In this document: in pieces, positions 73 through 15,876 of the stretch
How the letters are laid out: each line of letters begins with the position of its first letter
Position numbering within the stretch: position 1 is the first letter of the stretch
Source: Bdellovibrionota bacterium
GTDB taxonomy: Bacteria; Bdellovibrionota_C; UBA2361; JBGSMV01
Direction: 5' to 3'
Length of the DNA stretch: 15,876 bases
Assembly: GCA_041739995.1 (NCBI GenBank)
Contig: JBGSMV010000071.1
Location: 1-15,876, forward strand
The notes under the pieces: model-generated
The model's database searches: none
Seen by the model: only the letters and a program-made list of their open reading frames with translations
Told to the model about the DNA's origin: nothing
Translations under genes and position numbers: made by a program

Positions 73-103
73 TTTTCCTCCTTAACACAGTTAATGAGGA
101 AAA
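73..103 (-). promoter_or_regulatory. Hairpin overlapping the orfA Shine-Dalgarno
   Basis: TTTTCCTCCTTAAC-ACA-GTTAATGAGGAAAA is an inverted repeat with one mismatch that would sequester the SD in read-through transcripts. Confidence 0.55.
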
Positions 104-141
104 CTAACTTCAGACTGGTCTACATTTCAGGGGGGACGTCA

Positions 142-241
142 CCTTCAACTAAACATTCTGGCCACTTAGCACGAACAACTTGTTGAAGGGTGTTGTAGGG
201 TATTAAAGGATGTTGAAGCTATTTACGTAAAAATTACGGAA
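142..241 (+). repeat. att-arm-like repeat, copy 1 (5'-truncated by the IS3 element)
   Basis: Near-identical to 3043-3142 and 14303-14392; contains four 10-bp units (TGTTGAAGGG TGTTGTAGGG TATTAAAGGA TGTTGAAGCT) and TTTACGTAAAAATTACGGAA. Confidence 0.9.
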
Positions 242-259
242 TTTTTCCCAATCAAGAAT

Positions 260-2750: not shown

Positions 2751-2844
2751 GTCCTTCGATGCGCTTCCTTCGACTCGTTTAACTCGCTCAGGCCTAGTCG
2801 CTTACTCAGGACTTACCATGAGAGAACAAACGCGAGTCGAATGG
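2751..2844. repeat. Cluster of nested/inverted CCTTCGA...CTCAGG REP-like palindromes at the tRNA 3' end
   Basis: Outer GTCCTTCGA...CTCAGGAC (2751-2812) encloses inner CCTTCGACTCG...CTCGCTCAGG (2767-2792); an inverted copy CCATGAG...CGAGTCGAATGG (2816-2844) overlaps the tRNA CCA. Confidence 0.65.
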
Positions 2845-2978
2845 TCCCGAGGGCGGGAATTGAACCGTTCGGCTGCCTTCGACCCGAGCTCAGGCCGAGG
2901 GTAGCTCACGTCGAAGCTCGCACGGCTGTTAACCCCAGGATTTTAAGTCCTGTATGTCTACCATTCCATCACTCGGGC
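2842..2978 (-). tRNA. tRNA-Leu(UAA), interrupted by a 52-bp insert in the T-arm; probable pseudo- or chimeric tRNA
   Basis: GCCCGAG-TG-ATGGAATGGTAGACAT-A-CAGGA-CTTAAAA-TCCTG, long variable arm, GCG[insert]GGTTCAATTCCCGC-CCTCGGG-ACCA. The acceptor stem is out of register by one base. Confidence 0.85.
2865..2916 (-). mobile_element. Type A nested palindromic mini-insert (52 bp) in the tRNA T-stem
   Basis: CTTCGACGTGAGCTACCCTCGGCCTGAGCTCGGGTCGAAGGCAGCCGAACGG; nearly identical to 14635-14687 and 15628-15680. The empty site is visible in the tRNA fragment at 14231-14240. Confidence 0.9.
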
Positions 2979-2998
2979 AAATAACCTCACTCACTTTC

Positions 2999-3142
2999 TT
3001 TTAAGTTCGCTGGGTACATTACCGGTCGATCCCCCTCAACGTCCTTCAACTAAACATTCTCGCCACTTAGCACGAACAACTTGTTGAAGGGTGTTGTAGG
3101 GCATTGAAGGATGTTGAAGCTATTTACGTAAAATTTACGGAA
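2999..3142 (+). repeat. att-arm-like repeat, copy 2, starting at the core TTTTAAGT (left junction of the cargo island)
   Basis: Similarity to 14259-14392 begins exactly at TTTTAAGT, the reverse complement of the tRNA-Leu anticodon loop plus one base. Confidence 0.9.
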
Positions 3143-3157
3143 AACTTCTATGCCTCC

Positions 3158-4969
3158 TCACGGACCGAAGGATACAGTTGAAGATGCCAACCGGACCAAA
3201 GCTTCTTGACCAATCGGCTCCTCAGGCTGCCAAGGCAGCCACGCGGTCCGTTTTGCATGAGTCTCAACGACTTCCTGCAAATACCGACGCTCTGATTCTT
3301 CGCGGCGTAGCAGAAGCGGATCGCAGGATCCGCTATTGAATAGGCTTTGATTTATGACCCAGGCGAAGGGCTCAATCTGCGCACGTCGCAGATCTTCCTG
3401 CAATGCAGCAGCCTCGTGAACTGGCGTCGCTTCTGGCAATGCGATCAGCAATATGCGGGTAAATGCTGGATCTCGCAGGCGCTCCAAAAGATGCAGCACC
3501 TCCTCTGGTTGCGTGCTGCGTGCTTGGCGCTGAAGTTCGCGGTGATACGCTTCGCTTGAGTCGAGCAACAATAGGGTGTGGCCGGTGGGAGCGGTATCCA
3601 GCACAACAAAACGCCCCTTCCCCTGCCCGACCTCGCGAGCGAAAGCTCTAAAAACTGCGATCTCTTCTGTGCACGGAGAGCGCAGGTCTTCTTCCAACAA
3701 GGCTCGCCCAGCTTCGTCCATAGCGGAGCTTTGGTTGCGCATAACCTCTGCTTGATAAGCTACTGTCTCGGCCGAAGGATCGATTTTACCGATGGTGAGT
3801 CCTGCAACCTGCCCCGCGAGTGTCTGAGCAACATGCGCTGCTGGATCGGTAGTGCTGAGATGAACAGAATGGCCGCGCTTCGCAAGCATCACGGCAATGG
3901 CGGCGGCAACGGTAGTCTTGCCAACCCCACCTTTACCCATCGTCATGATAACGCCATGTCCCTGCTGCTCGATCGTCGAAATGAGCGCTGCAAGGCACTC
4001 CATCGCGGGCGGTATCCATTTTTCCTTCTGTAGCATGCGCGGCCCTGACTGCTCAGTTTTTTTATCTGATCTAAAATCCAACAACTCACGCAAACCTCCG
4101 AGCCCAAGAATATTGATTGACCTTAAGGGAACAACAAAAGTCGACATACTGCTGATAAACTCATTTGCCGTGGCAAGTGCCAACATCCCTCGCTGCTGCA
4201 TCGCTTGCGCAGTGACATCCTTAGGGCATGTTGTTTCAAAAACGCCATTTACAACGAGGCATTGATTGCCCACACCAAGAGTGCGGAGCTCCTTTGAGGT
4301 ACGCTCAGCTTCGCGAAGTGCAGCAAGCTGCGGCCGACTTACTAGAACCAGAGTCGTTGCTGAGGCATCTGCCAACGTCTTCACTGTGGCTTCATAAATG
4401 ACCCGCTGCTTCTCCAAACCAGCAAGTGGTCCGAGACAAGAAGTACCGCTCGTATTTTTATCGAGAAACTGATCCCATGCCTTAGCGAGACTCATAAGCC
4501 TTAGAGTGTGCCCAGTCGGCGCAGTATCGAAGATAACGTGGTCGTAGTTCTTGGTCGCTTCGGGATCGCCGATGAGACCTGAGAATTCGTCAAATGAAGC
4601 GATCTCAACGGTACACGAACCTGAAAGCTGCTCCTCCATGCTTGCAAGTGCTGCGGTAGGGAGAAGGCCACGCATCGGACCAATAAGCCGTTCACGATAC
4701 GCAGCGGCCGCTGCAACTGGATTAATATTGATTGCATGAAGTCCGGGAGCGCCTGGAATCGCCGTGGGCGAATTCGTAAGCTTCACTTCCAATACTTCGT
4801 CCAAATTGGAAGCCGGATCGGTGCTTACCAGCAGTACCCGCTTGCCAGCCTCAACGAGCATCAGTGCAGTGGCACAAGACAGCGACGTTTTACCAACTCC
4901 TCCTTTTCCGGTAAAAAAAAGATAGCGTGTGGTTTCGGCGGGATTAGGTTGATAATTGGGAAGCTTCAC
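3158..4969 (-). CDS. arsA: Arsenical pump-driving ATPase ArsA
   Basis: Two GKGGVGKT P-loops, two DTAPTGH signatures, metalloid-binding Cys in GSCTVEIA, TSCLGP and SPCTEEIA. GTG start overlaps the arsD stop. Confidence 0.97.
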   Translation of the reverse strand: MKLPNYQPNPAETTRYLFFTGKGGVGKTSLSCATALMLVEAGKRVLLVSTDPASNLDEVLEVKLTNSPTAIPGAPGLHAININPVAAAAAYRERLIGPMRGLLPTAALASMEEQLSGSCTVEIASFDEFSGLIGDPEATKNYDHVIFDTAPTGHTLRLMSLAKAWDQFLDKNTSGTSCLGPLAGLEKQRVIYEATVKTLADASATTLVLVSRPQLAALREAERTSKELRTLGVGNQCLVVNGVFETTCPKDVTAQAMQQRGMLALATANEFISSMSTFVVPLRSINILGLGGLRELLDFRSDKKTEQSGPRMLQKEKWIPPAMECLAALISTIEQQGHGVIMTMGKGGVGKTTVAAAIAVMLAKRGHSVHLSTTDPAAHVAQTLAGQVAGLTIGKIDPSAETVAYQAEVMRNQSSAMDEAGRALLEEDLRSPCTEEIAVFRAFAREVGQGKGRFVVLDTAPTGHTLLLLDSSEAYHRELQRQARSTQPEEVLHLLERLRDPAFTRILLIALPEATPVHEAAALQEDLRRAQIEPFAWVINQSLFNSGSCDPLLLRREESERRYLQEVVETHAKRTAWLPWQPEEPIGQEALVRLASSTVSFGP

Positions 4970-5298
4970 AAAGTTACCTTTTTCTCATCCTCAAGTGCCG
5001 CACGACTAAATGCTGGTCGCTCAATCGCCGTCGGATAGCGCCCCTTCAGGTAGACCTCGTCGTTTAGAAATATCAGTGGCAACACATCGGTACCTTCGTT
5101 GTCGAGCAAAGCCTTTACGACCGAATTTTCTGCGAAGGCCATCGGCTGTTGGCCCATGTTGTAGCGCTCAATCGTGAGGCCCTGCGTACCTAATTGCGCA
5201 AGTAGCGCGGCAAAGTTCACGAGATCAGGATTAATATCAGTACCGCAAACGCCGGTGGAGCAGCACATCGGTGGGTCATAAACTCGAATGGATTTCAT
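4966..5298 (-). CDS. arsD: Arsenite metallochaperone ArsD
   Basis: YDPPMCCSTGVCG (Cys12/13/18) and GRYPT motifs; SD AGGAGG. Confidence 0.96.
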   Translation of the reverse strand: MKSIRVYDPPMCCSTGVCGTDINPDLVNFAALLAQLGTQGLTIERYNMGQQPMAFAENSVVKALLDNEGTDVLPLIFLNDEVYLKGRYPTAIERPAFSRAALEDEKKVTL

Positions 5299-5334
5299 AA
5301 TGGAACCTCCTGATACGACTTCAGATAAAGCTGA

Positions 5335-6450
5335 TTATAATAGGATGCTACGTTTCTTTTCGACATGTCCTTCGTCATAGAGGCGCTTTCGAAAGAATAA
5401 CGCGACACTAACGAGACCGATGAGCACTGGTACCTCAACCAATGGCCCGATCACTGCTGCAAAAGCTGCGCCAGAATTAATTCCAAACACGCCGATAGCA
5501 ACGGCTATGGCGAGCTCAAAATTATTACTGGCGGCGGTAAAGCTGAGCGTTGCTGTTTTGGGGTAGTCAGCACCTGCCTTGTAGCTTACATAAAACGAAA
5601 CCAAAAACATCACGACGAAGTAAATCAGTAGTGGCACTGCGATACGAAAGACATCAAAGGGCAATGCGATAATATATTCGCCCTTAAGCGAGAACATCAC
5701 CACGATGGTAAAAAGAAGCGCTATCAAGGTTAGCGGGCTGATTCTTGGGATGAATTGTTCGTCATACCAGTCTCGACCATTAGCGCGAACTAACCAAAAA
5801 CGGGTCGCCATCCCAGCAAGAAACGGAATTCCGAGATAGATGAAGACACTCTCCGCTATGGCAGCGATAGTGATTGTCGAGAGATCCACCGAACCGAAAT
5901 CCACTCCGAAGATTGGTGGAAGTACCTTGATAAAGACAAAGGCAAACAGCGAGTAAAAAAGCACCTGAAAGATAGAATTAAAGGCTACTAGTCCTGCCGC
6001 GTATTCTGGGTCACCCTTAGCAAGATCATTCCACACAATGACCATAGCGATACACCGGGCGAGGCCAATCATGATGAGCCCAATCGCATATTCTGGTTTA
6101 TCCGAAAGAAAAATAAGTGCCAACGCAAACATCAGACATGGGCCGATGATCCAGTTCTGAGCAAGCGATAGGCTAAGAATCTTCCAATCTCTAAATACCC
6201 TTGGCAGCTCCTCATACCTGACCTTCGCCAAAGGCGGATACATCATAACAATAAGACCAAGCGCTATCGGTATGGAGGTTGTTCCAACGGAGAGTGACGT
6301 AAGAAACGTGACGGCTGAGGGGGTGAAGTAGCCGACCCCAATGCCAAGGCCCATGGCAAGAAATATCCACAGCGTAAGCCAGCGGTCTAGAAATGAAAGC
6401 CTTCCGACAACTGTGGGGCTACAACAGTTCCTCGCATCAACACCACTCAT
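5335..6450 (-). CDS. acr3: ACR3-family arsenite efflux transporter
   Basis: [47 protein letters not shown] and GPLVEVPVL motifs. Confidence 0.96.
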
Positions 6451-6567
6451 ATCAATCCCTCAATTCATTCAATGCAGAAATTCACTTATCTCTCGCGTTG
6501 TCGGCACGCTTCCTACGAAGTCAACTTACCTTCCGACCATTTGAAGCTGAATTATTGGTGCAACTAC

Positions 6568-7008
6568 CTACCCAACTTCAGCGTGCGAGAGCCACTGAAC
6601 AATCTTAGCTTTTATCTCGTCTCTCACTTGTCGAAATTTCTGTAACTCGAATTCTTCTGTGCCATCAAAAGCTGCTGGATCCTCAAATGGCTAATAAAGT
6701 GTGCTCCCAGCAAACGGAAACATAGTTGGGCAGCTATTCTTAGCATTTTCGCAAACCATAATTGCAGCACGCACTGCGGCTTTTCCTAGGTATGTTGAAA
6801 CACTCTTCGGGTTCTGTTTACTTGTATCAATTCCGATTTCCGCCATCACTTTATGCGTAAGAAAATGAATCGGCTTGGGATCAAGTCCCGCGCGATGCGC
6901 ATCGAAACTATCGGGCGCATAATGGCGAAGCAACGCTTCAGCCATTTGGCTCCTAGCGGAATTGCCCGTGCAAAGAACTAAAACTACTGGTTTGCGTTTC
7001 TCCTCCAT
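6568..7008 (-). pseudogene. arsC: Second ArsC/LMW-PTP-type arsenate reductase with an in-frame amber stop
   Basis: CTGNSARS P-loop. TAG at 6691-6693 replaces the conserved Trp (LY*PFEDPA); the frame continues [33 protein letters not shown] to a TAG at 6568. Confidence 0.88.
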
Positions 7009-7029
7009 ATCTTGCTACGCCTTAATGCC

Positions 7030-7521
7030 TTAGCTAATTAAACTTGTTGGATTGGATAAAGATTCAGGAAGTCTAGCTACAAAGGCTTTAATCTCGTCAC
7101 GTACCCTTCTGTAGTGCCCAAGCACCTCCTCCTCAGACTTAGCATTCAATGCAAGCTTTGGTGGGTCATCAAATCCGACATGCACTTTTTTTGCGCCGCC
7201 GGGAAATATCGGACACGCTTCGTTTGCGGAGTCACAAACTGTGATTACGCAATCAAATGTCCTTCCGGTTAATGAATCGACATGTTTTGAGCCTTGCTTT
7301 GTAATATCTATTCCCACTTCGGCCATCACCTTTACGGCGAGAGGGTTTAATCCTTGCGGCTTTGTTCCAGCAGAAAAGGCTTCAATACAATCCTCCTTTA
7401 GGTGATGCGCAAAGCCTTCAGCCATCTGACTGCGGCAGGAATTCCCAGTACAAAGAAAGAGAATTTTTGTTTGCATAGTAGGACTTGCGCCGAACTCGTT
7501 CTTTCCATTCTTGTGCATCAT
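7030..7521 (-). CDS. arsC: Thioredoxin-coupled arsenate reductase ArsC (LMW-PTP fold)
   Basis: CTGNSCRSQMAEG, CDSANEACPIFPG, FDDP and RVRDEI motifs. The start may be downstream at MQTKIL (7476). Confidence 0.93.
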   Translation of the reverse strand: MMHKNGKNEFGASPTMQTKILFLCTGNSCRSQMAEGFAHHLKEDCIEAFSAGTKPQGLNPLAVKVMAEVGIDITKQGSKHVDSLTGRTFDCVITVCDSANEACPIFPGGAKKVHVGFDDPPKLALNAKSEEEVLGHYRRVRDEIKAFVARLPESLSNPTSLIS

Positions 7522-7536
7522 AAATTCTTTTCGATT

Positions 7537-7917
7537 TTATTTTTGCTCACAACAGCCGCCTTTAGCGCTTGGGGCACAACATCCCTCAAACGCACGTGCT
7601 AAATCCCTAAGTGCAGCGCTTATCTCTTTATAACGAACCTGATAGGAGACCACGCGCCCACTCTTCGATGATTGAATGACATTGGCCCGGGCAAGAATTG
7701 CTAAATGCCTCGACACCACCGAAAAATCGACTGAGCAACACTGCGAAACCTCGGTTACCGAACAAGGGCGCCCGCACTTTGCAAGGCACGATAAAAGTAA
7801 CAACCGAGTTGGATCACCCAGTGCTTTAAAGAGCTCTGCGTTCAAAAGCTTATCAATAGGCTCTTCTCGGGCCGAGGCATGCTTGGGAGATTTCGCATAT
7901 TTGTATACTTGCGCCAT
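7537..7917 (-). CDS. arsR: ArsR/SmtB family metalloregulatory repressor
   Basis: FKALGDPTRL and VVSRHLAIL HTH motifs; C-terminal GCCAPSAKGGCC. ATG at 7917 chosen from promoter geometry. Confidence 0.92.
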   Translation of the reverse strand: MAQVYKYAKSPKHASAREEPIDKLLNAELFKALGDPTRLLLLSCLAKCGRPCSVTEVSQCCSVDFSVVSRHLAILARANVIQSSKSGRVVSYQVRYKEISAALRDLARAFEGCCAPSAKGGCCEQK

Positions 7918-7952
7918 AATGCAAATATATGACCATTCCTCAAATTGATCAA
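7897..7952 (-). promoter_or_regulatory. sigma70-type ars promoter with overlapping inverted-repeat operator
   Basis: TTGATC (7952-7947), 17-bp spacer, TATATT (7929-7924), then 6 nt to the ATG; inverted repeat ATATTTG...CAAATAT at 7897-7928. Confidence 0.7.
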
Positions 7953-8012
7953 CAAGCATAAATCAAATTCTAATGATTGAATTTGAATCTGAGTGAGCGC
8001 AACATCGAAAAC

Positions 8013-10463
8013 TTACTTGCCTTGATACGCCAAGAGTCGCAGCGCATTAAGGACCACGAGAAGCGTTGAACCTTCGTGGAGGAATACAGCGGGGCCTAAT
8101 CTCAGTCCGAAGATGGTCGCTGGAACCAGAAAAACTACCATACCGAGACTTAACCAGAGATTTTGACGAATGATGCGGCTCGTTTGTCGGCTAAGACCGA
8201 CGGCGAAGGGAAGGTGATTTAGATCATCAGCCATAAGAGCCACGTCAGCGGTTTCTAATGCAACATCTGAACCCGCAGCACCCATCGCAATCCCGACCGT
8301 CGCGTTCGCCATCGCAGGCGCGTCGTTCACGCCATCGCCCACCATCGCAACGCCTCCTTCCTTGTTTAGCTTCCTGATCGCCGAGACTTTATCATCGGGC
8401 ATTAAATCGCCCAACGCTTCATCGATACCGACGGCTTTGGCTACCGCATTGGCAACCTGTTGGTTGTCGCCCGAGAGCATGATCATTCTCCTAATGCCAA
8501 GCGCCCGTAGGCGGATAATCACACCCTTGGCTGCGTCTCGCGGTGTGTCCATTAACCCGAGCACACCAAGGTAGGTATCACCACGGCGGACGATCATTAT
8601 TGTTCTCCCAAGCGCTTTAAGTTTCTCGACAGATTCGCGTAAGGCATCCGGTGGTGGCGGGCCCTCCACTTCCGTGAATAGGCTGTCTTTACCAATATAA
8701 ACCCGCTGACCATCGACTGTGGCTAGAACCCCCCGTCCGGTAACACTTTGCATGTCGTGCGCTTGCAGAACTGAATCGCTCTTCAGCCGTTCCTTGGCGC
8801 CTCGAACTACGGCTGCGGCCAGTGGATGATCACTTTGAGCTTCTACAGCGACCGCAACCTTCAACAATTCCACTTCAGTGACGCTATCGAACTTGATTAC
8901 ATCGGTAAGTCGTGGCTTTCCTTCAGTCAATGTACCAGTCTTATCAAATGCAATCGCCCCCAGCCGCCCTAAGTTTTCAAGCGGCGCGCCGCCTTTCACT
9001 AGTACGCCCCCGCGAGCTGCGCGAGCTACTCCGCTAAGTACGGCGCTGGGGGTTGAGATAGCCAATGCACAGGGGCTTGCCGCAACTAATACCGCCATTG
9101 CGCGATAGAACGACTGGCTAAACGGCTCGTCGATAATCGCCCAGGCAAACAGCAGCAGAACGACCAACCCCAGCACCGCAGGCACAAAATATCGCTCGAA
9201 CCTATCGGTGAAATGTTGCGTCGGAGACTTTTGCGTTTCAGCCTCGCTCACCATTTTGACCACACGGGCGAGCGTGGAGTCACGAGCAAGCTTTGTGACC
9301 TGAATTTCCAGTGAGCCACTACCGTTAATCGTGCCGGCAAAGACCCGATGTTGCGCATCGAGCCGGTCCGGATTCGTTGCGGCCTTAGGTAAATCGTCAA
9401 CGGGACGCTTGTCGACCGGAACGCTTTCCCCTGTGATCGGGGCCTGATCGACGACGCTTTCTCCCTTAATCACAAACCCATCGGCGGGAATACGCTCGTT
9501 CGGTTTAATCACCACCACATCCCCTAGCCGAAGCTGCTCCACGGGCACTTCTTTTGTCTCTTTCCCACGCCGGACTATCGCGGTTTGGGGTGCTAGCTCA
9601 GCGAGTGCTTCAATCGCCCGCTTTGCGCGGCCCATTGCGTAATGTTCCAACGAGTGTCCAATACTGAATAGAAACAAGAGCAGAGCACCTTCAGCCCATT
9701 CTCCGAGTGTAGCAGCGCCAATCGCAGCCACTAGCATCAAGAAGTCGATCTCAAAACGGCCAACACGGATGCTAGCGACCACTTCGCGAAGCGTGAAATA
9801 TCCGCCGAAAATGTAAGCGGCCAGATAGAAACTCCATGGTATCCACGGCGTGATGTTAGAGCGCCATGATACGAGCCAGCCGATAACCAGTAGCCCGCCG
9901 CAAAGCACTGCGAAAAGCAGTTCCGTTCGCTCCCCCAATAGGTCTCCGTGGTTCTGCTCTTTAGCGACCGCCTTAGGCCCAGCTTCGTAGGCAACTGATG
10001 GCTGAGGTGCGATCGTCTTTTCGGCAAAACGCACGCCGAATTTTCGCAGCTCCGCTCGAATGCTTTCGTCGTCGGTCGCCTCACGATCAAACTCAAGACG
10101 CACTACGCCAGCGGGCGACACTGCGGCATCCAGCACCCCCCGTATCTTTCTCGCTCGTGCTTCAACCGTGAGCGCCTGTGCAGCGAACATGGTTTCCGAG
10201 GTGACCAATAAATGACCAAATCGATCGTCGAGTTCCGCCCCAGCTCGTTCGGCCAAATCTCGAACTTCTCCAATCGAAAGTCGATTGGGATCAAAGTGAA
10301 TACAGATTGCTTCGTGGCCGTTGGCCTCGGTCTTAGCAAGATGGGCTTTCTCAATTCCTTTCTTCGCACTTAGTAATTCACTAAGTCGCTTAACGCACGC
10401 GTCACGAGCGTCTGGCACCGTCGGCAATAGTAAGGCGATATCAATCTTTGTTCTCTCAGGCAT
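8013..10463 (-). CDS. Heavy-metal P1B-type ATPase, P1B-4 subgroup (Co/Zn/Fe/Cd candidate substrates)
   Basis: TGES, SPC in the transmembrane metal site, DKTGT, HP, GDGVNDAP and HEGST motifs. Start overlaps the upstream stop by 8 bp. Confidence 0.95.
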   Translation of the reverse strand: MPERTKIDIALLLPTVPDARDACVKRLSELLSAKKGIEKAHLAKTEANGHEAICIHFDPNRLSIGEVRDLAERAGAELDDRFGHLLVTSETMFAAQALTVEARARKIRGVLDAAVSPAGVVRLEFDREATDDESIRAELRKFGVRFAEKTIAPQPSVAYEAGPKAVAKEQNHGDLLGERTELLFAVLCGGLLVIGWLVSWRSNITPWIPWSFYLAAYIFGGYFTLREVVASIRVGRFEIDFLMLVAAIGAATLGEWAEGALLLFLFSIGHSLEHYAMGRAKRAIEALAELAPQTAIVRRGKETKEVPVEQLRLGDVVVIKPNERIPADGFVIKGESVVDQAPITGESVPVDKRPVDDLPKAATNPDRLDAQHRVFAGTINGSGSLEIQVTKLARDSTLARVVKMVSEAETQKSPTQHFTDRFERYFVPAVLGLVVLLLFAWAIIDEPFSQSFYRAMAVLVAASPCALAISTPSAVLSGVARAARGGVLVKGGAPLENLGRLGAIAFDKTGTLTEGKPRLTDVIKFDSVTEVELLKVAVAVEAQSDHPLAAAVVRGAKERLKSDSVLQAHDMQSVTGRGVLATVDGQRVYIGKDSLFTEVEGPPPPDALRESVEKLKALGRTIMIVRRGDTYLGVLGLMDTPRDAAKGVIIRLRALGIRRMIMLSGDNQQVANAVAKAVGIDEALGDLMPDDKVSAIRKLNKEGGVAMVGDGVNDAPAMANATVGIAMGAAGSDVALETADVALMADDLNHLPFAVGLSRQTSRIIRQNLWLSLGMVVFLVPATIFGLRLGPAVFLHEGSTLLVVLNALRLLAYQGK

Positions 10464-12138
10464 TCTTTTTTACTCGATCATTCAGATCTTCAATCGCGGG
10501 ATTAAATAGCTTGTAGGTCTTATAGCCACCACTCACGTTTACGGCAGAATAGCCCATCTGCATCAGAATTCGGGTCGCTAAGTAGCCGCGCTGCCCGACT
10601 TGGCAATAGGAAGCAATCTTGCGGTCGGTTGGCAATTCTTTAAGGCGCGATCGTAGTTCGTCGATCGGCATGTTAACTGCACCTGGGATGTGCCCCGAAG
10701 CAAATTCCTGCGGTGTGCGAACATCCAAAAGAAACGGTCGATCGGCAACAGGAGCTGCAAATAGGGTTTCGACATCGACCTGGGGATGATCTCCACGCAA
10801 CAAGCCGCCCGCAACAAAGCCCGCCATATTTATCGGGTCTTTTGCCGAACCGTACTGCGGCGCGTAGGCGAGTTCCATCTCTTCTAGGTCGAAAACAGTC
10901 ATACCGGCTTGAATCGCAACGGAGAGAATATCGATTCGCTTATCCACGCCAGTCCCGCCCACGGCCTGCGCCCCCAGAACGTGACCCGTTGTCGGATCAA
11001 AGAGCAGCTTCAGTATCATCACTTCGGCACCGGGGTAGTACCCAGCGTGATGCGCCGGATGGACGTAAACCTTGTTAAATGCCCGCTTAGCTCGCCGCAG
11101 GATTTTCTCAGAAGCCCCTGTCATCGCGGCCGTGCGGTCGAACACTCCGACGATAGCGGTTCCCTGTGTTCCCCGATACTTTGACGACCGCCCGAAGACG
11201 TTGTCGGCAGCGATTCGTCCTTGTCGATTTGCAGGTCCAGCAAGAGGAATCTGAGTCGGCTCGCCCGACAAAACGTCCTTGACCTCAATCGCGTCACCAA
11301 CCGCATAGATACACGCGTCGCTAGTTTGCAGAAATTCGTTAACCCGGATCCCACCACCGCGCCCTACCTCGAGGCCCGCGTCGACTGCAAGCTTACTTTC
11401 CGGGTGTACCCCCACTCCGAAGATGACAAGTTGGGCAGGGAGTCGTCGACCTGAATTCAAGCAGGCGACCAATCCCTCGGAGGTTTCCTCCAACGCTTCG
11501 GCAGTTTGTCCGAGAAGTAATGTGACGCCTTTGTTCGCCAATTCGTGAACTAGCGGTGTAACCATCTCCTTATCGAACGGTGTAAGAATCTGCTCACTCC
11601 TCTCGACCACCGTGGTTGCAATGCCGCGTCTAACAAAATTTTCCGCGAGTTCGAGATTTATGAAGCCACCTCCCAAGAGTACGGCCTGCTTCACGCCATG
11701 TGCCACTCGCGCCATTATTCGGTCAGTATCTTGTAAGTCTCGCAGCGTAAACACGCCGGGCAAGTTAACACCGGGAATTGACGGGCGTACCGGAGCCGCG
11801 CCTGTTGCGAGGATTAGCTTGTCATAAGATTCGACGTAATCCTTTCCGGACGCTAGGTCACGAACACGAACAGTCTTTGCAGTGCGATCGATAACTTCAA
11901 CAGACGACCGAATTCGCAAGTCGAGTCTAAAACGCGCGCGCAACAATTCGGGCTTCGTGACGAGCAGTTTTTCTCTCTCTGAAATTTCGCCGCCGATGTA
12001 ATAAGGAAGCCCACAGTTCGCGAAGGATACATCCGGCCCCCGCTCAAACAGCACGATTTGCGCGTCCTCCGAGAGACGCCGCGCCCGAGCGGCAGCCGAA
12101 GCACCTCCGGCCACGCCGCCAATTATTACTAATTTCAC
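10456..12138 (-). CDS. CoA-disulfide/persulfide reductase with C-terminal rhodanese domain (CoADR-RHD/Npsr-like)
   Basis: GGVAGG FAD motif, SFANCG redox Cys, GGGFI NAD(P)H motif, YAPQY, rhodanese LDVRTPQEF...GHIPGA...YCQVGQRG; GTG start with AGGAG SD. Confidence 0.92.
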   Translation of the reverse strand: MKLVIIGGVAGGASAAARARRLSEDAQIVLFERGPDVSFANCGLPYYIGGEISEREKLLVTKPELLRARFRLDLRIRSSVEVIDRTAKTVRVRDLASGKDYVESYDKLILATGAAPVRPSIPGVNLPGVFTLRDLQDTDRIMARVAHGVKQAVLLGGGFINLELAENFVRRGIATTVVERSEQILTPFDKEMVTPLVHELANKGVTLLLGQTAEALEETSEGLVACLNSGRRLPAQLVIFGVGVHPESKLAVDAGLEVGRGGGIRVNEFLQTSDACIYAVGDAIEVKDVLSGEPTQIPLAGPANRQGRIAADNVFGRSSKYRGTQGTAIVGVFDRTAAMTGASEKILRRAKRAFNKVYVHPAHHAGYYPGAEVMILKLLFDPTTGHVLGAQAVGGTGVDKRIDILSVAIQAGMTVFDLEEMELAYAPQYGSAKDPINMAGFVAGGLLRGDHPQVDVETLFAAPVADRPFLLDVRTPQEFASGHIPGAVNMPIDELRSRLKELPTDRKIASYCQVGQRGYLATRILMQMGYSAVNVSGGYKTYKLFNPAIEDLNDRVKKNA

Positions 12139-12252
12139 AATGAGGACTCCTTTTGTGTGGGCGAGGTGTGACTACGGACAGCTCCACGTCAGTTCACGTG
12201 ACCTATCAGAAGAGTGTTGAGAGTTCCACTCGTTGTTCGAATTTATTCTCGC

Positions 12253-12258
12253 ATTATA
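12253..12258 (-). promoter_or_regulatory. Candidate -10 box for the reductase-ATPase operon
   Basis: Perfect TATAAT about 115 bp upstream of the start; no convincing -35. Confidence 0.35.
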
Positions 12259-12300
12259 TCTTACCACCAGAATCTCTCCGGTTAGGCTGACTAACATCAC

Positions 12301-12573
12301 TCAGCGGTGCAATGCCCAGTAGGCATCCGCCTCAGCCTCAAGCCGCTCCAGCCGCGTGTAGTAATCCGGGAACTCTTTGAGATGTGCCCACGCAATCTTT
12401 CCGGTTAACACGACATCATCATTAGTGACATTTGTCGCAGGGTCGTGGGTGCCGTGCTCGAACTCCACCTCAAGTCCGCGCCGGAACTGGTCGGGGTCTA
12501 TTTTGGCCCAATCGATACCTAGCTTGCTGCCAATTTGCTCAGCTTCATCGGTCGTGATCTTTCGCTTGTTCAT
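12301..12573 (-). CDS. DUF5661 family protein
   Basis: GLEVEFEHG...TGKIAWAHLKEFPDYYTRL. ATG at 12573 avoids overlap with the dehydrogenase. Confidence 0.8.
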   Translation of the reverse strand: MNKRKITTDEAEQIGSKLGIDWAKIDPDQFRRGLEVEFEHGTHDPATNVTNDDVVLTGKIAWAHLKEFPDYYTRLERLEAEADAYWALHR

Positions 12574-12598
12574 AAAAAACTCGCAGTAGTTTAAAATA

Positions 12599-13672
12599 TT
12601 ATCCAAATGAGATTAGCGGTTTGATCATTCCATCCTCTTTGGTCTGCATCATCTTGAACGCCTTTTCGATATCTTTGAACTCGAAACGGTGGGTTGTGAG
12701 CGCGAGGGGATCCACGCGCTCCTTCCTAATCAGTCGCATTAAGCGACCCATACGTTCGGAGCCGCCCGGACACAAACCTGTTCGGATTGTCTTGTCACTC
12801 ATGCCCACACCCCAGGCCTCGCGCGGAATTGGCACATTGTCCCCATCGCCATGATAGCCGATGTTAGAAATTGTTCCGCCCGGGCGCGTCACGCTTACGC
12901 ATGCTTCAAAAGTTTGTGCTGCGCCCAAGGCCTCAATAGACGAATCCACTCCCTTGCCGTCCGTGAGTTTCATAATCGCCAAGACGGGGTCCTCATCAGC
13001 GAAGTTCACGACCACGTCGCAGCCATACTTCTTCGCCAGTGCGATACGATTCGGCATGGACTCAACACCGATGATGAGGCCCGCACCTCGTAATCTAGCT
13101 CCAACCGTTGCCATCAACCCTACTGGCCCTTGCGAGAAAATCGCGACGCTGCCGCCAATCGGTATATTGGCGTGCTCCGCTGCCACAAATCCTGTCGAGA
13201 GCATGTCGCAGCAGTAAGCGGCCTGTTCGTCGGAGAGTTCGTCTGGAATGGGGGCGAGGTTAGCGATCGCGTTATTGACGTGAAAGTATTCGGCAAAGCT
13301 GCCATCTTTCAGGTTCGCGAACTTCCAACCACCAAGCATCCCACCACACTGACTCGAATAACCTCGCTGGCAATTGTCACACTCAAAACACGGTGTAATG
13401 GCGTTTACCGCAACACGCTGGCCAATTTTAAACAGACCACTACCGGCAGCTACTTCTCCAAGCTCGTGGATTACACCGACAGCCTCATGCCCGAGCGTCA
13501 GATTCTGGCGCTCACCAATGGCGCCAGCCACGGTGTGAATATCGGAGGTGCAGACAAGAGCAGCGGTCGTGCGAATGATTGCGTCGTTCGGTCCCGGGAG
13601 CGGAATCGGCTTATCCATCACGCCGACCCGTCCGATACCGCGCATCACAAAACATTGCATTCTACTGGACAT
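12599..13672 (-). CDS. Zinc-dependent (MDR) alcohol dehydrogenase, similar to NAD(P)-dependent secondary/isopropanol dehydrogenases
   Basis: CTSDIH, GHEAVG, CFECDNCQRGYSSQC structural Zn site, QGPVG nucleotide-binding loop. Confidence 0.92.
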   Translation of the reverse strand: MSSRMQCFVMRGIGRVGVMDKPIPLPGPNDAIIRTTAALVCTSDIHTVAGAIGERQNLTLGHEAVGVIHELGEVAAGSGLFKIGQRVAVNAITPCFECDNCQRGYSSQCGGMLGGWKFANLKDGSFAEYFHVNNAIANLAPIPDELSDEQAAYCCDMLSTGFVAAEHANIPIGGSVAIFSQGPVGLMATVGARLRGAGLIIGVESMPNRIALAKKYGCDVVVNFADEDPVLAIMKLTDGKGVDSSIEALGAAQTFEACVSVTRPGGTISNIGYHGDGDNVPIPREAWGVGMSDKTIRTGLCPGGSERMGRLMRLIRKERVDPLALTTHRFEFKDIEKAFKMMQTKEDGMIKPLISFG

Positions 13673-14031
13673 AGTCTATCGCTCCCACTCATTTGAGCCC
13701 TGGTCTTTTCGACAGTTACCTTTCGTACTTTAGTATTAAGCAGCTCTTCTGGGTGAGATGGTCATGATGCTCATCATATGCTCCCCCATCAAATGAGCAC
13801 AGCGCACCTGGCGGTGTATTTTCCAGCGCGGTGAGCGGCGTACGGGAAGTCCAGGACTTTAGATGTCGATTTGACGCAGCGCTTCGCCCGGAGCCGAGTT
13901 CCTGCCACGACGCTATCTGAGCTATTTTTCCCCAATGTAAATCGATTTCTGGTGCATGAATAAACCTTGGAAGTATCGCCCACACGGCAGTCTGTCCTTG
14001 TAAACTTTGGTCGTGAAGAGGGGCTGCTCCT

Positions 14032-14060
14032 GCCCGCCAAAGCTTCAGCGACGGCGGACT
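14032..14060. repeat. Single type B REP-like palindrome
   Basis: GCCCGCCAAAGCTTCAGCGACGGCGGACT is nearly identical to the right arm of the insert at 15454-15528. Confidence 0.8.
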
Positions 14061-14076
14061 CTTGTAGCCTTCTTGG

Positions 14077-14155
14077 CTACGGAAATTCCCGCTATCCGAA
14101 AATCTCCGCAAGCAATCACAACACCTGTCAACAACCTACAACACCCTACAACAAA
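14077..14155. repeat. Opposite att-arm-like region
   Basis: TACGGAAAT at 14078 matches the TTTACGGAAA motif; four CAACA units at 10-bp spacing (14116-14155) are the reverse complement of the TGTTGTAGGG units. Confidence 0.7.
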
Positions 14156-14214
14156 CGGCTTCCGCCGCTAAACTTCCAAGTGCCCGGAATCAGGAGTGGG
14201 ACGCATGACTTTAA

Positions 14215-14266
14215 TGCCCAGGGCGGGACTTGAACCCGCACGGCTGTTAACCCCAGGATTTTAAGT
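14215..14266 (-). other. 3' half of tRNA-Leu(UAA): att identity block
   Basis: ACTTAAAATCCTGGGGTTAACAGCCGTGCGGGTTCAAGTCCCGCCCTGGGCA matches the tRNA at 2842-2978 from the anticodon loop onward and has no insert; the 5' half is absent. Confidence 0.9.
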
Positions 14267-14392
14267 TCGACGGGTACAATACCGGTCGACACCCTTCAAC
14301 GTCCTTCAACTAGATATTCTCGCCACTTAGCACGAACAACTTGTTGAGGGGTGTTGTAGGGTATTGAAGCTGTTTACGTAAAATTTACGGAA
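14259..14392 (+). repeat. att-arm-like repeat, copy 3
   Basis: Near-identical to 2999-3142 but has three rather than four 10-bp units. Confidence 0.9.
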
Positions 14393-14634
14393 ATTTTGAA
14401 CCCCTCGACGCCCCCCTTCCTGCTCCACCTAGGCAACTTTCCGCTGCAATTACCGATTATGTTAGGTGTTGCAGTGTCGCCGCTGGGAGAGCACCAAGAA
14501 CTCGCTCCAGCATTATCGCCGAAGAACTCCAGAGCAGACGCAGCTCTACCGCGTCGTCTATCACGGACGAGACGAGCTATCTCGGGTCTGGGAAGAGCGC
14601 TTTCAGCAAACCTATGGCGTTCTTCGTGACGAGG

Positions 14635-14687
14635 CTTCGGCCGTGAGCTACCCTCGGCCTGAGCTCGGGTCGAAGGCAGCCGAACGG
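14635..14687 (+). mobile_element. Type A nested palindromic mini-insert (53 bp), frameshifting
   Basis: Removal joins GAG G|TC (Glu-Val) and restores the frame; identical to 15628-15680. Confidence 0.9.
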
Positions 14688-14830
14688 TCTTAACGACGTT
14701 CGATGAGTATCTCAATTGCGGACTGCTCGCGCACGGGGCGGCGCGAGTCTATTGCGATACCTGCAAGCATTCGTTACTCGTGGCATTTTCATGCAAAAAG
14801 CGCGGGATTTGCCCGAGCTGTGGCGCGAAG

Positions 14831-14898
14831 TCCGTCTTCGCATAAAGCTACGCCGGGACTGACTATTAGACCACGCCGTAGCATTTTGCGTAGGCGGG
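14831..14898. mobile_element. Type B REPIN-like doublet insert (68 bp), frameshifting
   Basis: About 25-bp inverted arms TCCGTCTTCGCATAAAGCTACGCCG and CGCCGTAGCATTTTGCGTAGGCGGG; removal joins AAG|CGC (CGAK-RAVKF). Confidence 0.85.
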
Positions 14899-15453
14899 CG
14901 CGCCGTGAAGTTCGGTGAACATCTCTACGATTCAGTCCTTGAGAAGGTGCCGCATCGGCACTGCGGCTTTACGCTCCCAAAGCGCCTACGAGTGTATTTT
15001 AGGTACGACCGGAGCCTGAACAATATTCTCTTTCAGGCGGCAGCTACCGCCGTGCATTCAGTGCTTGGCTCAGATACCAAAAGCACCGCACTTGTCCTCA
15101 CCGTGCAGACTGCCGGTGAGGCACTTAACTTCAATCCACATCTGCACGGGTTACTTGCCGATGGGACATTCGAAGCATCTGGAAAATTCACCCCTCTTGC
15201 TGCCATAGACATCGAGGCTCTCACCTGCCACTTCGAAAACGAGGTGCTCGCGAAACTCATCACCCGGGGACTCATCACCGATGACGAGGTTGCCCAGATT
15301 CTTGCCCAAGAGCATTCGGGCTTCGGTGCCTGGGTCGGAGAACCATTCGAGGAGGCGGACCGTACAAAATTCGTCGCACGCTACATCGAACGGGGTCCGA
15401 TCTCGCTAGAGAAGCTGACAATCCAGGATGATATAATTACCTACACCACCAAG

Positions 15454-15528
15454 TCCGACTTCGCTAAAGCTGCGTCGGGACACCGCCGTTGCATGGGAGG
15501 ACCACGCCAAAGCTTCAGCGGCGGCGGG
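15454..15528. mobile_element. Type B REPIN-like doublet insert (75 bp), in frame
   Basis: TCCGACTTCGCTAAAGCTGCGTCGGGAC-spacer-GACCACGCCAAAGCTTCAGCGGCGGCGGG after AAG; adds 25 aa SDFAKAASGHRRCMGGPRQSFSGGG. Confidence 0.85.
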
Positions 15529-15627
15529 GACGAGCGCGCTCATGAATTCGATGCCATGGAGTTTCTCGCACTCCTGTCCTGTCATATTCCGAAACCATAC
15601 GAATGTATCACTCGATACTACGGCTGG

Positions 15628-15680
15628 CTTCGGCCGTGAGCTACCCTCGGCCTGAGCTCGGGTCGAAGGCAGCCGAACGG
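15628..15680 (+). mobile_element. Type A nested palindromic mini-insert (53 bp), introduces a stop
   Basis: Removal joins TGG|TAC, giving the conserved RYYGWYS. Confidence 0.9.
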
Positions 15681-15730
15681 TACTCGTGCAGGGCGAGAGG
15701 GGAGAGAAAAAAGCGCATTCCCGTTCAAGA

Positions 15731-15746
15731 CTCCCCTCCCCTCCCC
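15731..15746 (+). repeat. (CTCCC)3 tandem repeat causing a frameshift in the transposase
   Basis: Three units give TAG at 15747; two units put the WAQCFKRIYEINPLECPRC C-terminus in frame. Confidence 0.7.
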
Positions 15747-15876
15747 TAGAGGTCGGAGGGCGACCATCGCTCACCTGGGCGCAATGCTTCAAGCGCATCT
15801 ATGAAATTAATCCGCTCGAGTGCCCACGCTGCAAAAATGAGATGCGAATCATCGCATTCGTTACCAATGAGCGAGA

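Follow-up and report, generated by a model that had tools for sequence, protein, structure and literature searches.

A 53-nucleotide repeat of a Bdellovibrionota contig as a probable self-nesting mobile hairpin

What kind of element is the 53-nucleotide (nt) sequence that interrupts a transposase gene twice, and a tRNA-like gene once in a slightly shorter form, on a single contig of a Bdellovibrionota bacterium (NCBI GenBank assembly GCA_041739995.1, contig JBGSMV010000071.1)? The stretch analysed here, hereafter the window, comprises the 15,876 nt of that contig, which is contig C16 of its own assembly (G000; 81 contigs, 3.8 Mb, 52% G+C). An earlier note, made from the letters alone, had described a mobile hairpin targeted to GG^T and always lying in sense orientation, possibly removable at the RNA level. 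The observation is real, and the anatomy of the element proves more interesting than that note saw, while the intron-like and always-sense ideas are left unsupported. In our judgement the sequence is probably a very small, self-nesting, non-autonomous mobile DNA hairpin. Throughout, the 53-mer is referred to as the composite, the 27-mer inside it as the core and the remaining 26 nt as the shell, and the letters C, L and G stand for contig, locus and genome.

The basis for this reading lies in the copies themselves. A direct repeat of 56 nt is present without a mismatch at 14633-14688 and 15626-15681 of the window, and a 47-nt match at 2864-2910 is 100% complementary to it. On the plus strand, the composite at 14635..14687 (site B) splits a GTC codon of a transposase gene (...RDE-V-LTTFDEY...), and an identical composite at 15628..15680 (site A) falls between the TGG and TAC codons of the same gene (...YYGW^YSC...). 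On the minus strand, a 52-nt variant at 2865..2916, which deviates from the 53-mer solely within its first ~7 bases, sits in a tRNA-Leu(UAA)-like gene, where the 5' strand of the T stem meets the T loop. Both a repeat search and direct reading bear out these three copies, with their coordinates, their strands and the identity of two of them. The genome-wide BLASTN search of the 53-mer that had been proposed as a check was also run: against the 3.8-Mb assembly it returned 34 rows, seven of which are full or 46-nt exact copies (three in C16, and C75:3978-4030, C36:183773-183825, C13:1844-1896 and C27:1972-2023), four more than the window holds; the remaining 27 rows are matches of 12-16 nt. Five of the seven copies fall within diverged IS91-family (Y2) transposase genes, always at one of the same two codon positions, and the other two, in the window and in C27, occupy one T-arm position of displaced tRNA-Leu 3' halves as the same 52-nt variant. 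All seven lie within insertion sequence (IS) or island-junction DNA, mobile or dead, and in all seven the core is exact. A control pattern read backwards gave 0 matches in 61 genomes and 0 in 124, which places the 53-mer far above chance.

The host sequences provide a direct view of the sites before and after insertion. The window transposase gene (14460..15876, plus strand, running off the window end) is a pseudogene of the IS91 family (Y2_Tnp), as established by Pfam PF04986, frame-by-frame translation and alignment with paralogs, and it carries both 53-mers. The copies in C13, C36 and C75 occupy sites A or B in other, diverged transposase genes. Site A is naturally empty in C8 and C77 (GGATGG^TATTCG), site B is naturally empty in C77 (CGAGG^TCTTAACC), and the C36 paralog has site A filled and site B empty. 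For the tRNA site, the window itself contains a tRNA-Leu 3' half without insert (14217..14266, minus strand), recognized by sequence comparison, whose natural empty site reads GTGCGGG^TTCAAG. The three empty sites deduced in the earlier note match these real sequences. When compared with them, sites A and B and the tRNA site show no target duplication, the junction being placeable only within 2 nt owing to the flanking G's. With 53 nt taken out, the frame of the transposase gene is exactly regained at site A and at site B, and excising the 52-nt copy in silico restores the T arm of the tRNA-like gene. Insertion at the window's sites is a DNA-level event, precise and free of duplication.

The age of the inserts relative to their hosts can be judged from the 100-nt flanks. 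Between C16 and C13 the two flanks are identical at 84/101 and 85/100 positions, between C16 and C36 at 69/110 and 64/112, and between the two tRNA copies at 60/116 and 66/113; in every one of these pairs, whose flanks are thus 55-85% identical, the inserts are the same, at 53/53 positions among the transposase-site copies compared and at 52/52 for the tRNA pair. Because the inserts are identical while the flanks have diverged, they are younger than the divergence of their hosts. Contigs from four DNA metagenome runs (X1-X4), aligned with the window, skip exactly 53 nt from 14632 to 14686 (X2 and X4) and from 15625 to 15679 (X4). The identical inserts in diverged flanks, the mixture of filled and empty paralogs and the skips of 53 nt uphold the view of an inserted, non-autonomous element younger than the genes that harbour it.

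The same metagenome contigs skip 82 nt from 14815 to 14898, with 14 other letters between, and 75-76 nt from 15452 to 15528, and one of them is 5 nt shorter at 15731. The first two skips coincide with a second family of small inserts in the window transposase gene, at 14831-14898 (68 nt) and 15454-15528 (75 nt), which have common termini and the same orientation and both lie directly after AAG. The 68-nt insert recurs at the same site in the C36 paralog with 98.6% identity, and paralogs empty at this site read GCGAAG^CGCGCC. At ~15731 the window has one extra CCCCT unit with respect to an X1-run contig and C75, and this unit frameshifts the transposase C-terminus. The gene is therefore host to four small inserts plus a frameshifting 5-nt indel. 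Other filled copies are damaged too, with a large internal deletion in C36 and truncation or rearrangement in C13 and C75, and the empty copies in C77 and C8 are open frames of 425 and 343 amino acids.

Closer inspection of the composite points to an internal structure. In the loci that match a 24-nt piece of the element, the sole constant part is a 27-mer identical to positions 14650-14676, and the surroundings are variable. This core, ACCCTCGGCCTGAGCTCGGGTCGAAGG (14650..14676, plus strand), stands at GAGCT^C of the shell, and the same 27-mer occurs alone in many genomes. The separation of core and shell assigns positions 14635-14649 and 14677-14687 (plus strand) to the shell arms of the site-B copy, and it places the cores of the other two copies at 15643..15669 on the plus strand (site A) and at 2876..2902 on the minus strand (tRNA). 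The shell itself resembles the core, with TCGGCC close to its 5' end, a central GAGCTC, and CGAA-GG at the 3' end. The 53-mer is thus a 27-nt core nested in the GAGCT^C loop of a related 26-nt shell. That the unit consists of two smaller elements, one nested in the other, had been overlooked in the earlier note.

The halves of the core are imperfect inverted repeats (10/13), and it amounts to nine codons, with five of its six frames open. In arrays of tandem heptamers it interrupts the repeat in phase (CACTCCG CA^CTCCG, AACTTTG AA^CTTTG, AACAAAC AA^CAAAC), and since the phase is kept, the core boundaries are fixed. Nesting is moreover reciprocal. In G065:C41 a core is split after GAGC by a member with an intact GAGCTC, all of it lying within a third member, and in G114:C250 a shell-type element lies within a core. 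The plasmid records yielded three weak matches, one of which, on plasmid pAQ6 of Picosynechococcus PCC 7002 (L131, 1480-1580), is a diverged triple nest lying between genes. Members of the family insert into each other's GAGCTC loops as well as into tandem heptamers and, as detailed below, in frame into coding genes. When a coreless shell was sought in the window's own genome (up to five mismatches), no intact copy was found, and there were three partial look-alikes at 3-4 mismatches. The composite has been copied onward as one unit after nesting.

The core alone is far more widespread than the composite. A scan of one genome per species with an exact 24-nt piece recovered at least 118 copies in at least 116 loci, and among 80 listed core loci there are ~45 accession prefixes and at least nine phylum-level labels. 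Copy numbers are low: with up to three mismatches, five carriers have 22, 9, 3, 3 and 1 copies per genome, of which 18, 9, 1, 0 and 1 are exact, and the sole complete carrier chromosome has three. Distribution among relatives of the window's genome is patchy. In its phylum the core (up to two mismatches) is present in 9/124 genomes, with six of the nine carriers belonging to one genus, and it is absent from all four genomes of the window's own genus and family (0/4). The shell-plus-core string was found in 2/61 relatives, the window's genome counted, and a 43-nt version of it gave one match in a metagenome contig collection. Searches of viral contigs for the 24-nt piece of the core found 0 matches, and phage records gave none. 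The core is also unchanged at orthologous or paralogous sites of other genomes. In L051 and L066 the flanks are identical at 116/150 and 132/150 positions, and in L119 and L124 at 121/150 and 121/154; the cores are identical in both pairs.

Many cores lie inside genes. Of the longest open frames spanning cores, 16 were scanned against Pfam, and 15 gave family matches. Ten cores lie in frame in nine Pfam-supported open reading frames (ORFs), each within a domain of a single open frame or in the stretch between two domains: DNA polymerase I (PolA; L019), a nitrogenase-type oxidoreductase (L023), a P-type ATPase (L029), CbiA (L033), CobQ with two cores (L034), glutamyl-tRNA synthetase (GluRS; L036), aconitase (L040), and CbiE in L051 and its ortholog L066. 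Six other Pfam-matched ORFs were left uncounted, the core lying in the first 24-39 residues, after the last domain or in a high-G+C frame. When GluRS of L036 is aligned with PDB 4gri, a gap of exactly nine residues falls at the core, and a 1.3-Mb genome carries its single core in polA. L033, L034 and L051 share one 58-kb contig of a Nitrospiraceae-labelled genome, where four cores (CbiA, CobQ twice, CbiE) lie in ~15 kb of a cobalamin gene cluster, each within CACTCCG/CAATCCG heptamers. A tblastn search with pieces of the transposase against 121 loci (L013-L128 plus five G033 loci) gave three matches. In L119 and L124 a lone core lies within an IS91-type gene at a third position (ECP^KCK), in sense orientation and in the sole stop-containing frame, and in L077 an IS91-type gene lies ~1.2 kb from the core. 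A further locus, L138 (G114:C239), has a 300-nt direct repeat (189-488 and 3541-3840, 97% identical) with a core in each copy; the repeat brackets ORFs of 463 and 375 amino acids and lies ~1.2 kb upstream of a Y2 transposase gene, and the bases right before the core include GTTC and CTTG, which we take to be the IS91 target tetranucleotides.

Does the family have a defined target and a preferred orientation? The GG^T target put forward earlier survives only in part. GG precedes the shell at every shell-type site, and T follows the element at five of seven (A, B, the tRNA site, L009 and L132, the element in L132 being without its last G), but there is no T after the element in the repeated G033 context, which comprises two positions six bases apart. 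For lone cores, the base after the 27-mer is C in 70/72 unique contexts, a very short motif, and the first base of the 27-mer in the same 72 contexts is A in 41, C in 27 and G in 4. Exact 7-nt direct repeats flank the core in 11/71 unique contexts, against a mean of 0.3 and a maximum of 2 in controls, and flanking repeats of 5, 6, 8 and 9 nt occur in 0-2 contexts each. There are no tandem heptamers around the element at the window's own three sites, and the GluRS copy is free of duplication, at odds with the 7-nt repeats found elsewhere. As for orientation, the claim that the element always reads in sense holds for three independent window sites only, all of them in pseudogenes or remnants. 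Elsewhere copies are intergenic, or antisense in 8/10 in-gene cores, and the two sense copies represent one orthologous site. The shell-type copies outside this genome are intergenic; they point against the ORFs on both sides in L003 and L132, and the same way as these in L009. Within the window transposase gene, both 53-mers share one orientation, as do both inserts of the second family.

Taken as a mobile hairpin, the element would be moved in trans, as single-stranded DNA, by an enzyme that cuts and rejoins precisely in the manner of HUH-type enzymes (like those of IS200/IS605 or IS91), and the same activity would also permit precise excision. Frame-breaking 53-mers might then persist solely in dispensable DNA, and 27-mers could persist in frame in genes. 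HUH-type movement with precise excision would in this way explain why composites are found in dispensable DNA and cores in essential genes, and why decayed copies are few. In the rolling-circle transposition proposed for IS91-type elements it is always the same strand that becomes single-stranded, and if insertion requires single-stranded DNA, the common orientation of the inserts in IS91 genes would reflect that strand rather than any effect of transcription. Some of the copies at the same site in paralogs may have spread by recombination between IS copies and not by fresh insertion.

A number of observations weigh against this reading or against parts of it. The 7-nt flanking repeats point to a staggered cut or to slippage, and are more easily reconciled with a transposase that makes staggered cuts than with an HUH enzyme. 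By its predicted fold the 53-mer is no stabler than shuffled sequences (z = -0.97), the hairpin being thermodynamically ordinary. In 60-nt empty targets folded as DNA on both strands at five sites, no hairpin that was consistent or significant formed where the element inserts; this point coincides with a stem-loop junction in the tRNA T arm alone. No long parent element bounded by half-sites was found in five genomes searched. Neither does a search for the mobilising enzyme lend support. The RAYT or IS200-type gene flanked by the same hairpins that had been anticipated was not found, no Y1_Tnp gene adjoining copies in G000 or five carriers: in G061 and G000 no contig holds both, and in G065 the two contigs shared place them ~9 and 14 kb apart. 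Across the window's phylum, Y1_Tnp is present in 7/9 element-positive and 86/115 element-negative genomes (93/124 overall), with no enrichment. Y2_Tnp is present in 8/9 and 52/115, respectively (60/124 overall), and this association is weakened by six of the nine positives belonging to one genus, 25/36 genomes of which have Y2_Tnp, and by the absence of Y2_Tnp from three of five carriers in other phyla, including the 1.3-Mb genome with a core in polA. Once relatedness is considered, co-occurrence with Y1_Tnp or Y2_Tnp gives no convincing enzyme association. The contigs that skip 53 nt are ~91% identical to the window and may represent paralogs rather than alleles. The transposase paralogs are mosaics, and beyond site A the sequence of C16 is the same as that of C75, both contigs stopping where C63 starts; some of the seemingly independent copies may therefore stem from recombination, or from assembly across the 53-nt repeat. 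Finally, simple selfish spread does not explain why copies are exactly identical across phyla and hardly any have decayed.

A bolder proposal, which we consider less likely than not, can also be made. The core might belong to an undescribed class of minimal mobile element, a phylum-crossing, self-nesting hairpin whose precise insertion and excision would keep its copies identical and almost free of decay, which essential genes like polA and gltX would tolerate in frame, which would seed or target 7-nt tandem repeats and which would be driven by a widespread host function or an unrecognised enzyme. The family so conceived would span Thermodesulfobacteriota, Nitrospirota, Chloroflexota, Planctomycetota, Verrucomicrobiota, Bdellovibrionota, Methylomirabilota, candidate-phyla-radiation lineages and cyanobacterial plasmids.

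Of the competing explanations, the one that survives best, unlikely as it seems to us, holds that the composite is a mere passenger: a single old or foreign insertion per site, acquired horizontally, would have been carried from one IS91 copy or island att remnant to the next through homologous recombination or gene conversion. The confinement of all seven copies to IS or island-junction DNA is in line with this explanation, and the transposase paralogs are indeed mosaic, C16 and C77 being ~97% identical over the first ~100 nt and ~80% thereafter, and C16 and C75 sharing all that follows site A. The second small insert at 14831-14898, common to C16 and C36 at one site, fits it as well, as do the lack of the element in the same genus and family and the rarity of the composite elsewhere, with its one match in the metagenome contigs. 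Against it, an identical core with diverged flanks at a shared site is also met with in genes and phyla that have nothing to do with these, and some housekeeping genes without any paralog from which to convert carry a single core. Site B of C77 is identical to the filled targets and yet empty, and conversion tracts would have to stop within a few bases of the insert every time.

Two further possibilities appear improbable, and to much the same degree. The first is that the 27-mer consists of the joined 13-nt terminal inverted repeats, or is the excision footprint, of a larger transposon making 7-bp duplications. The 10/13 match between core halves agrees with it, and so does the peak of flanking repeats at exactly 7 nt (11/71 contexts, against 0-2 for the neighbouring lengths). 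Half-sites, however, fall almost exclusively within whole cores in the five genomes examined (7/7; 9/9; 9/9 and 9/10; 5/5 and 5/6; ~20/22), and the split cases turn out to be nests of other small hairpins, not kilobase elements; many copies, like those in GluRS, in nests and at the window's sites, are moreover free of duplication. The second is that the core is a functional motif held constant by selection and repeatedly recruited, be it as a protein-binding or recombination site or as a signal for RNA stability or termination. Its identity across phyla, and at orthologous sites whose coding flanks are 12-23% diverged, would be natural on such terms, and so would the scarcity of decayed copies. 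The places in which it occurs would not: cores sit at arbitrary positions of enzymes, pointing either way, as well as in pseudogenes and between genes, at low copy number and patchily among relatives (9/124), with no match to a known RNA family in Rfam and no shared neighbour gene seen.

The idea that the element is intron-like, removed from the transcript of functional host genes and hence found in sense orientation, is the least credible of all: exact restoration of the frame at both transposase sites and of the T arm upon removal, together with the sense orientation of all three window sites, is what such an element would give, but the insert-bearing transposase genes are otherwise broken (68-nt and 75-nt inserts, the 5-nt indel, the internal deletion of C36) while the empty copies are open, a point against excision at the RNA level; the genome also has an intact tRNA-Leu(UAA) on C27, cores in intact genes seem to be read through in frame and are antisense in 8/10 cases, and self-splicing introns are far larger than 53 nt. 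Rfam gave no match to the element at its gathering score, and around the element at E up to 10 it returned nothing but a spurious long non-coding RNA row, with no ribozyme or intron match. Group I, group II and archaeal introns were accordingly set aside as candidates, given also that the hosts are broken in other ways, the bulge-helix-bulge motif of the last of these not having been formally searched.

How does the mobile hairpin compare with systems already described? By behaviour, its nearest described counterparts would seem to be the small dispersed repeats (SDRs) of Nostocaceae. These reportedly measure 21-27 nt, are near-invariant, have a predicted hairpin, lie in tandem heptamers and nest within one another, and we know of no transposase that moves them. 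The likeness extends to size class, near-perfect conservation of copies, predicted hairpin, embedding in heptamers (11/71 contexts) and nesting (the 53-mer, L133, L136 and pAQ6). In contrast to SDRs, the 27-nt core occurs under at least nine phylum-level labels among the listed loci, in hosts other than Nostocaceae, with 1-22 copies per genome, and in frame in housekeeping genes. A 2018 study states that, within HIP1-rich cyanobacteria, SDR-like repeats were not encountered outside Nostocaceae (PMC5861425). The literature searched, an incomplete sample and no proof of novelty, holds no description of the 27-mer, of its spread across phyla or of SDR-like elements outside cyanobacteria.

Other families of small repeats resemble the element in fewer respects. 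REP and REPIN sequences are extragenic, occur in hundreds of copies and are thought to be moved as single-stranded hairpins by an HUH Y1 enzyme (RAYT); with them the element shares a short imperfect palindrome and a non-autonomous nature. A GTAG or CGTC tetranucleotide at the end of the palindrome serves as a criterion for REPs in one study (PMC3733652). Neither tetranucleotide is present at either end of core or shell, and membership in the REP/REPIN-RAYT system was rejected on account of this missing tag, the lack of a flanked RAYT gene, the 1-22 copies per genome and the many intragenic copies. The palindromic elements of Rickettsia (RPE) are said to be ~100-150 bp long, to lie in frame in protein genes, including essential ones, to be translated and to be confined to Rickettsia. 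The element is likewise palindromic and its core likewise lies in frame in coding genes (10 cores, 9 ORFs), but its units are 27 and 53 nt long, its hosts belong to other phyla and it nests within itself. Derivatives of IS200/IS605 (PATEs, MITEs) and IS91 have two different hairpin ends and measure ~100 bp or more. The imperfect hairpin recalls these strand-specific, precisely excisable systems, and insertion without duplication next to what may be a fixed, very short motif would fit them too, whereas the element consists of a single hairpin of 26-27 nt. Classical MITEs (Correia/NEMIS, ERIC, Nezha), finally, are 100-400 bp long, derive from a recognisable IS, have terminal inverted repeats and target duplications and can be intragenic. 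With them the element has in common its non-autonomous nature, its inverted repeats and an ability to lie in genes; in contrast to them, it makes no duplication at the window's sites and no parent IS was seen, and the 7-nt repeats (11/71) leave membership in this group partly open.

If our reading is true, elements of the SDR kind are no curiosity of Nostoc, but a general class of the smallest mobile DNA known, present in many phyla and even in tiny genomes. There are practical consequences as well. Assemblies break at IS copies, and contigs here end at or near copies of the element; tRNA finders are defeated, as ARAGORN misses the interrupted tRNA; and 9-residue insertions in essential enzymes may be misread as lineage-specific loops. 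What moves the core is a testable question, posed by its identity across phyla and the few decayed copies, and the pAQ6 nest, in the cultured and transformable Picosynechococcus PCC 7002, offers a place to address it.

The tRNA copy also sheds light on the setting of the element. The interrupted tRNA-Leu(UAA)-like gene (2842..2978, minus strand) has an Rfam tRNA match at 2881-2978 with 29.3 bits (cut-off 29), and ARAGORN reports zero tRNAs in the window. Its 5' half is identical to the genuine tRNA of C27, and its 3' half is of other origin. On C27, the intact tRNA-Leu(taa) at c[2100,2182] lies immediately upstream of the insert-bearing fragment. Between the tRNA pieces of the window lie genes for ArsA, ArsD, an Acr3-type carrier, ArsR and a P-type ATPase, two ArsC-like genes and a CoA-disulfide-reductase-like gene. 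This arrangement suggests an island, or tandem islands, integrated at tRNA-Leu, and the insertions show both the transposase gene and the tRNA copy to be dead remnants that border an arsenic/metal resistance island.

Some minor features complete the picture. A three-copy repeat of ~110-160 nt (64-91% identical; window positions 98-255, 2999-3156 and 14259-14406), rich in GTTGAAGG/GTTGTAGG-like motifs, directly adjoins the tRNA-Leu pieces, and two of its copies end at ACTTAAAA, which is the sequence of the tRNA anticodon loop. With arsenic and metal resistance genes between them, these copies resemble arm or att regions of integrative islands lying in tandem. At ~2765-2800, a short way downstream from the interrupted tRNA-like gene, the window also has a degenerate relative of the hairpin family (CCTTCGACTCG...GCTCAGGCC), which shares its strand with the 52-nt copy. 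Elsewhere in the genome, C67 (6480-6700) holds a truncated transposase remnant that ends at site A with an inverted left shell arm and has an additional ~32-nt insert within CHIPKP codons, an arrangement that suggests breakage and rejoining at the boundary and loop of the element. To the left of the window's island, and outside it, lie a Fic/DOC-family gene (1453-2646) and a DUF6933 gene (260-835).

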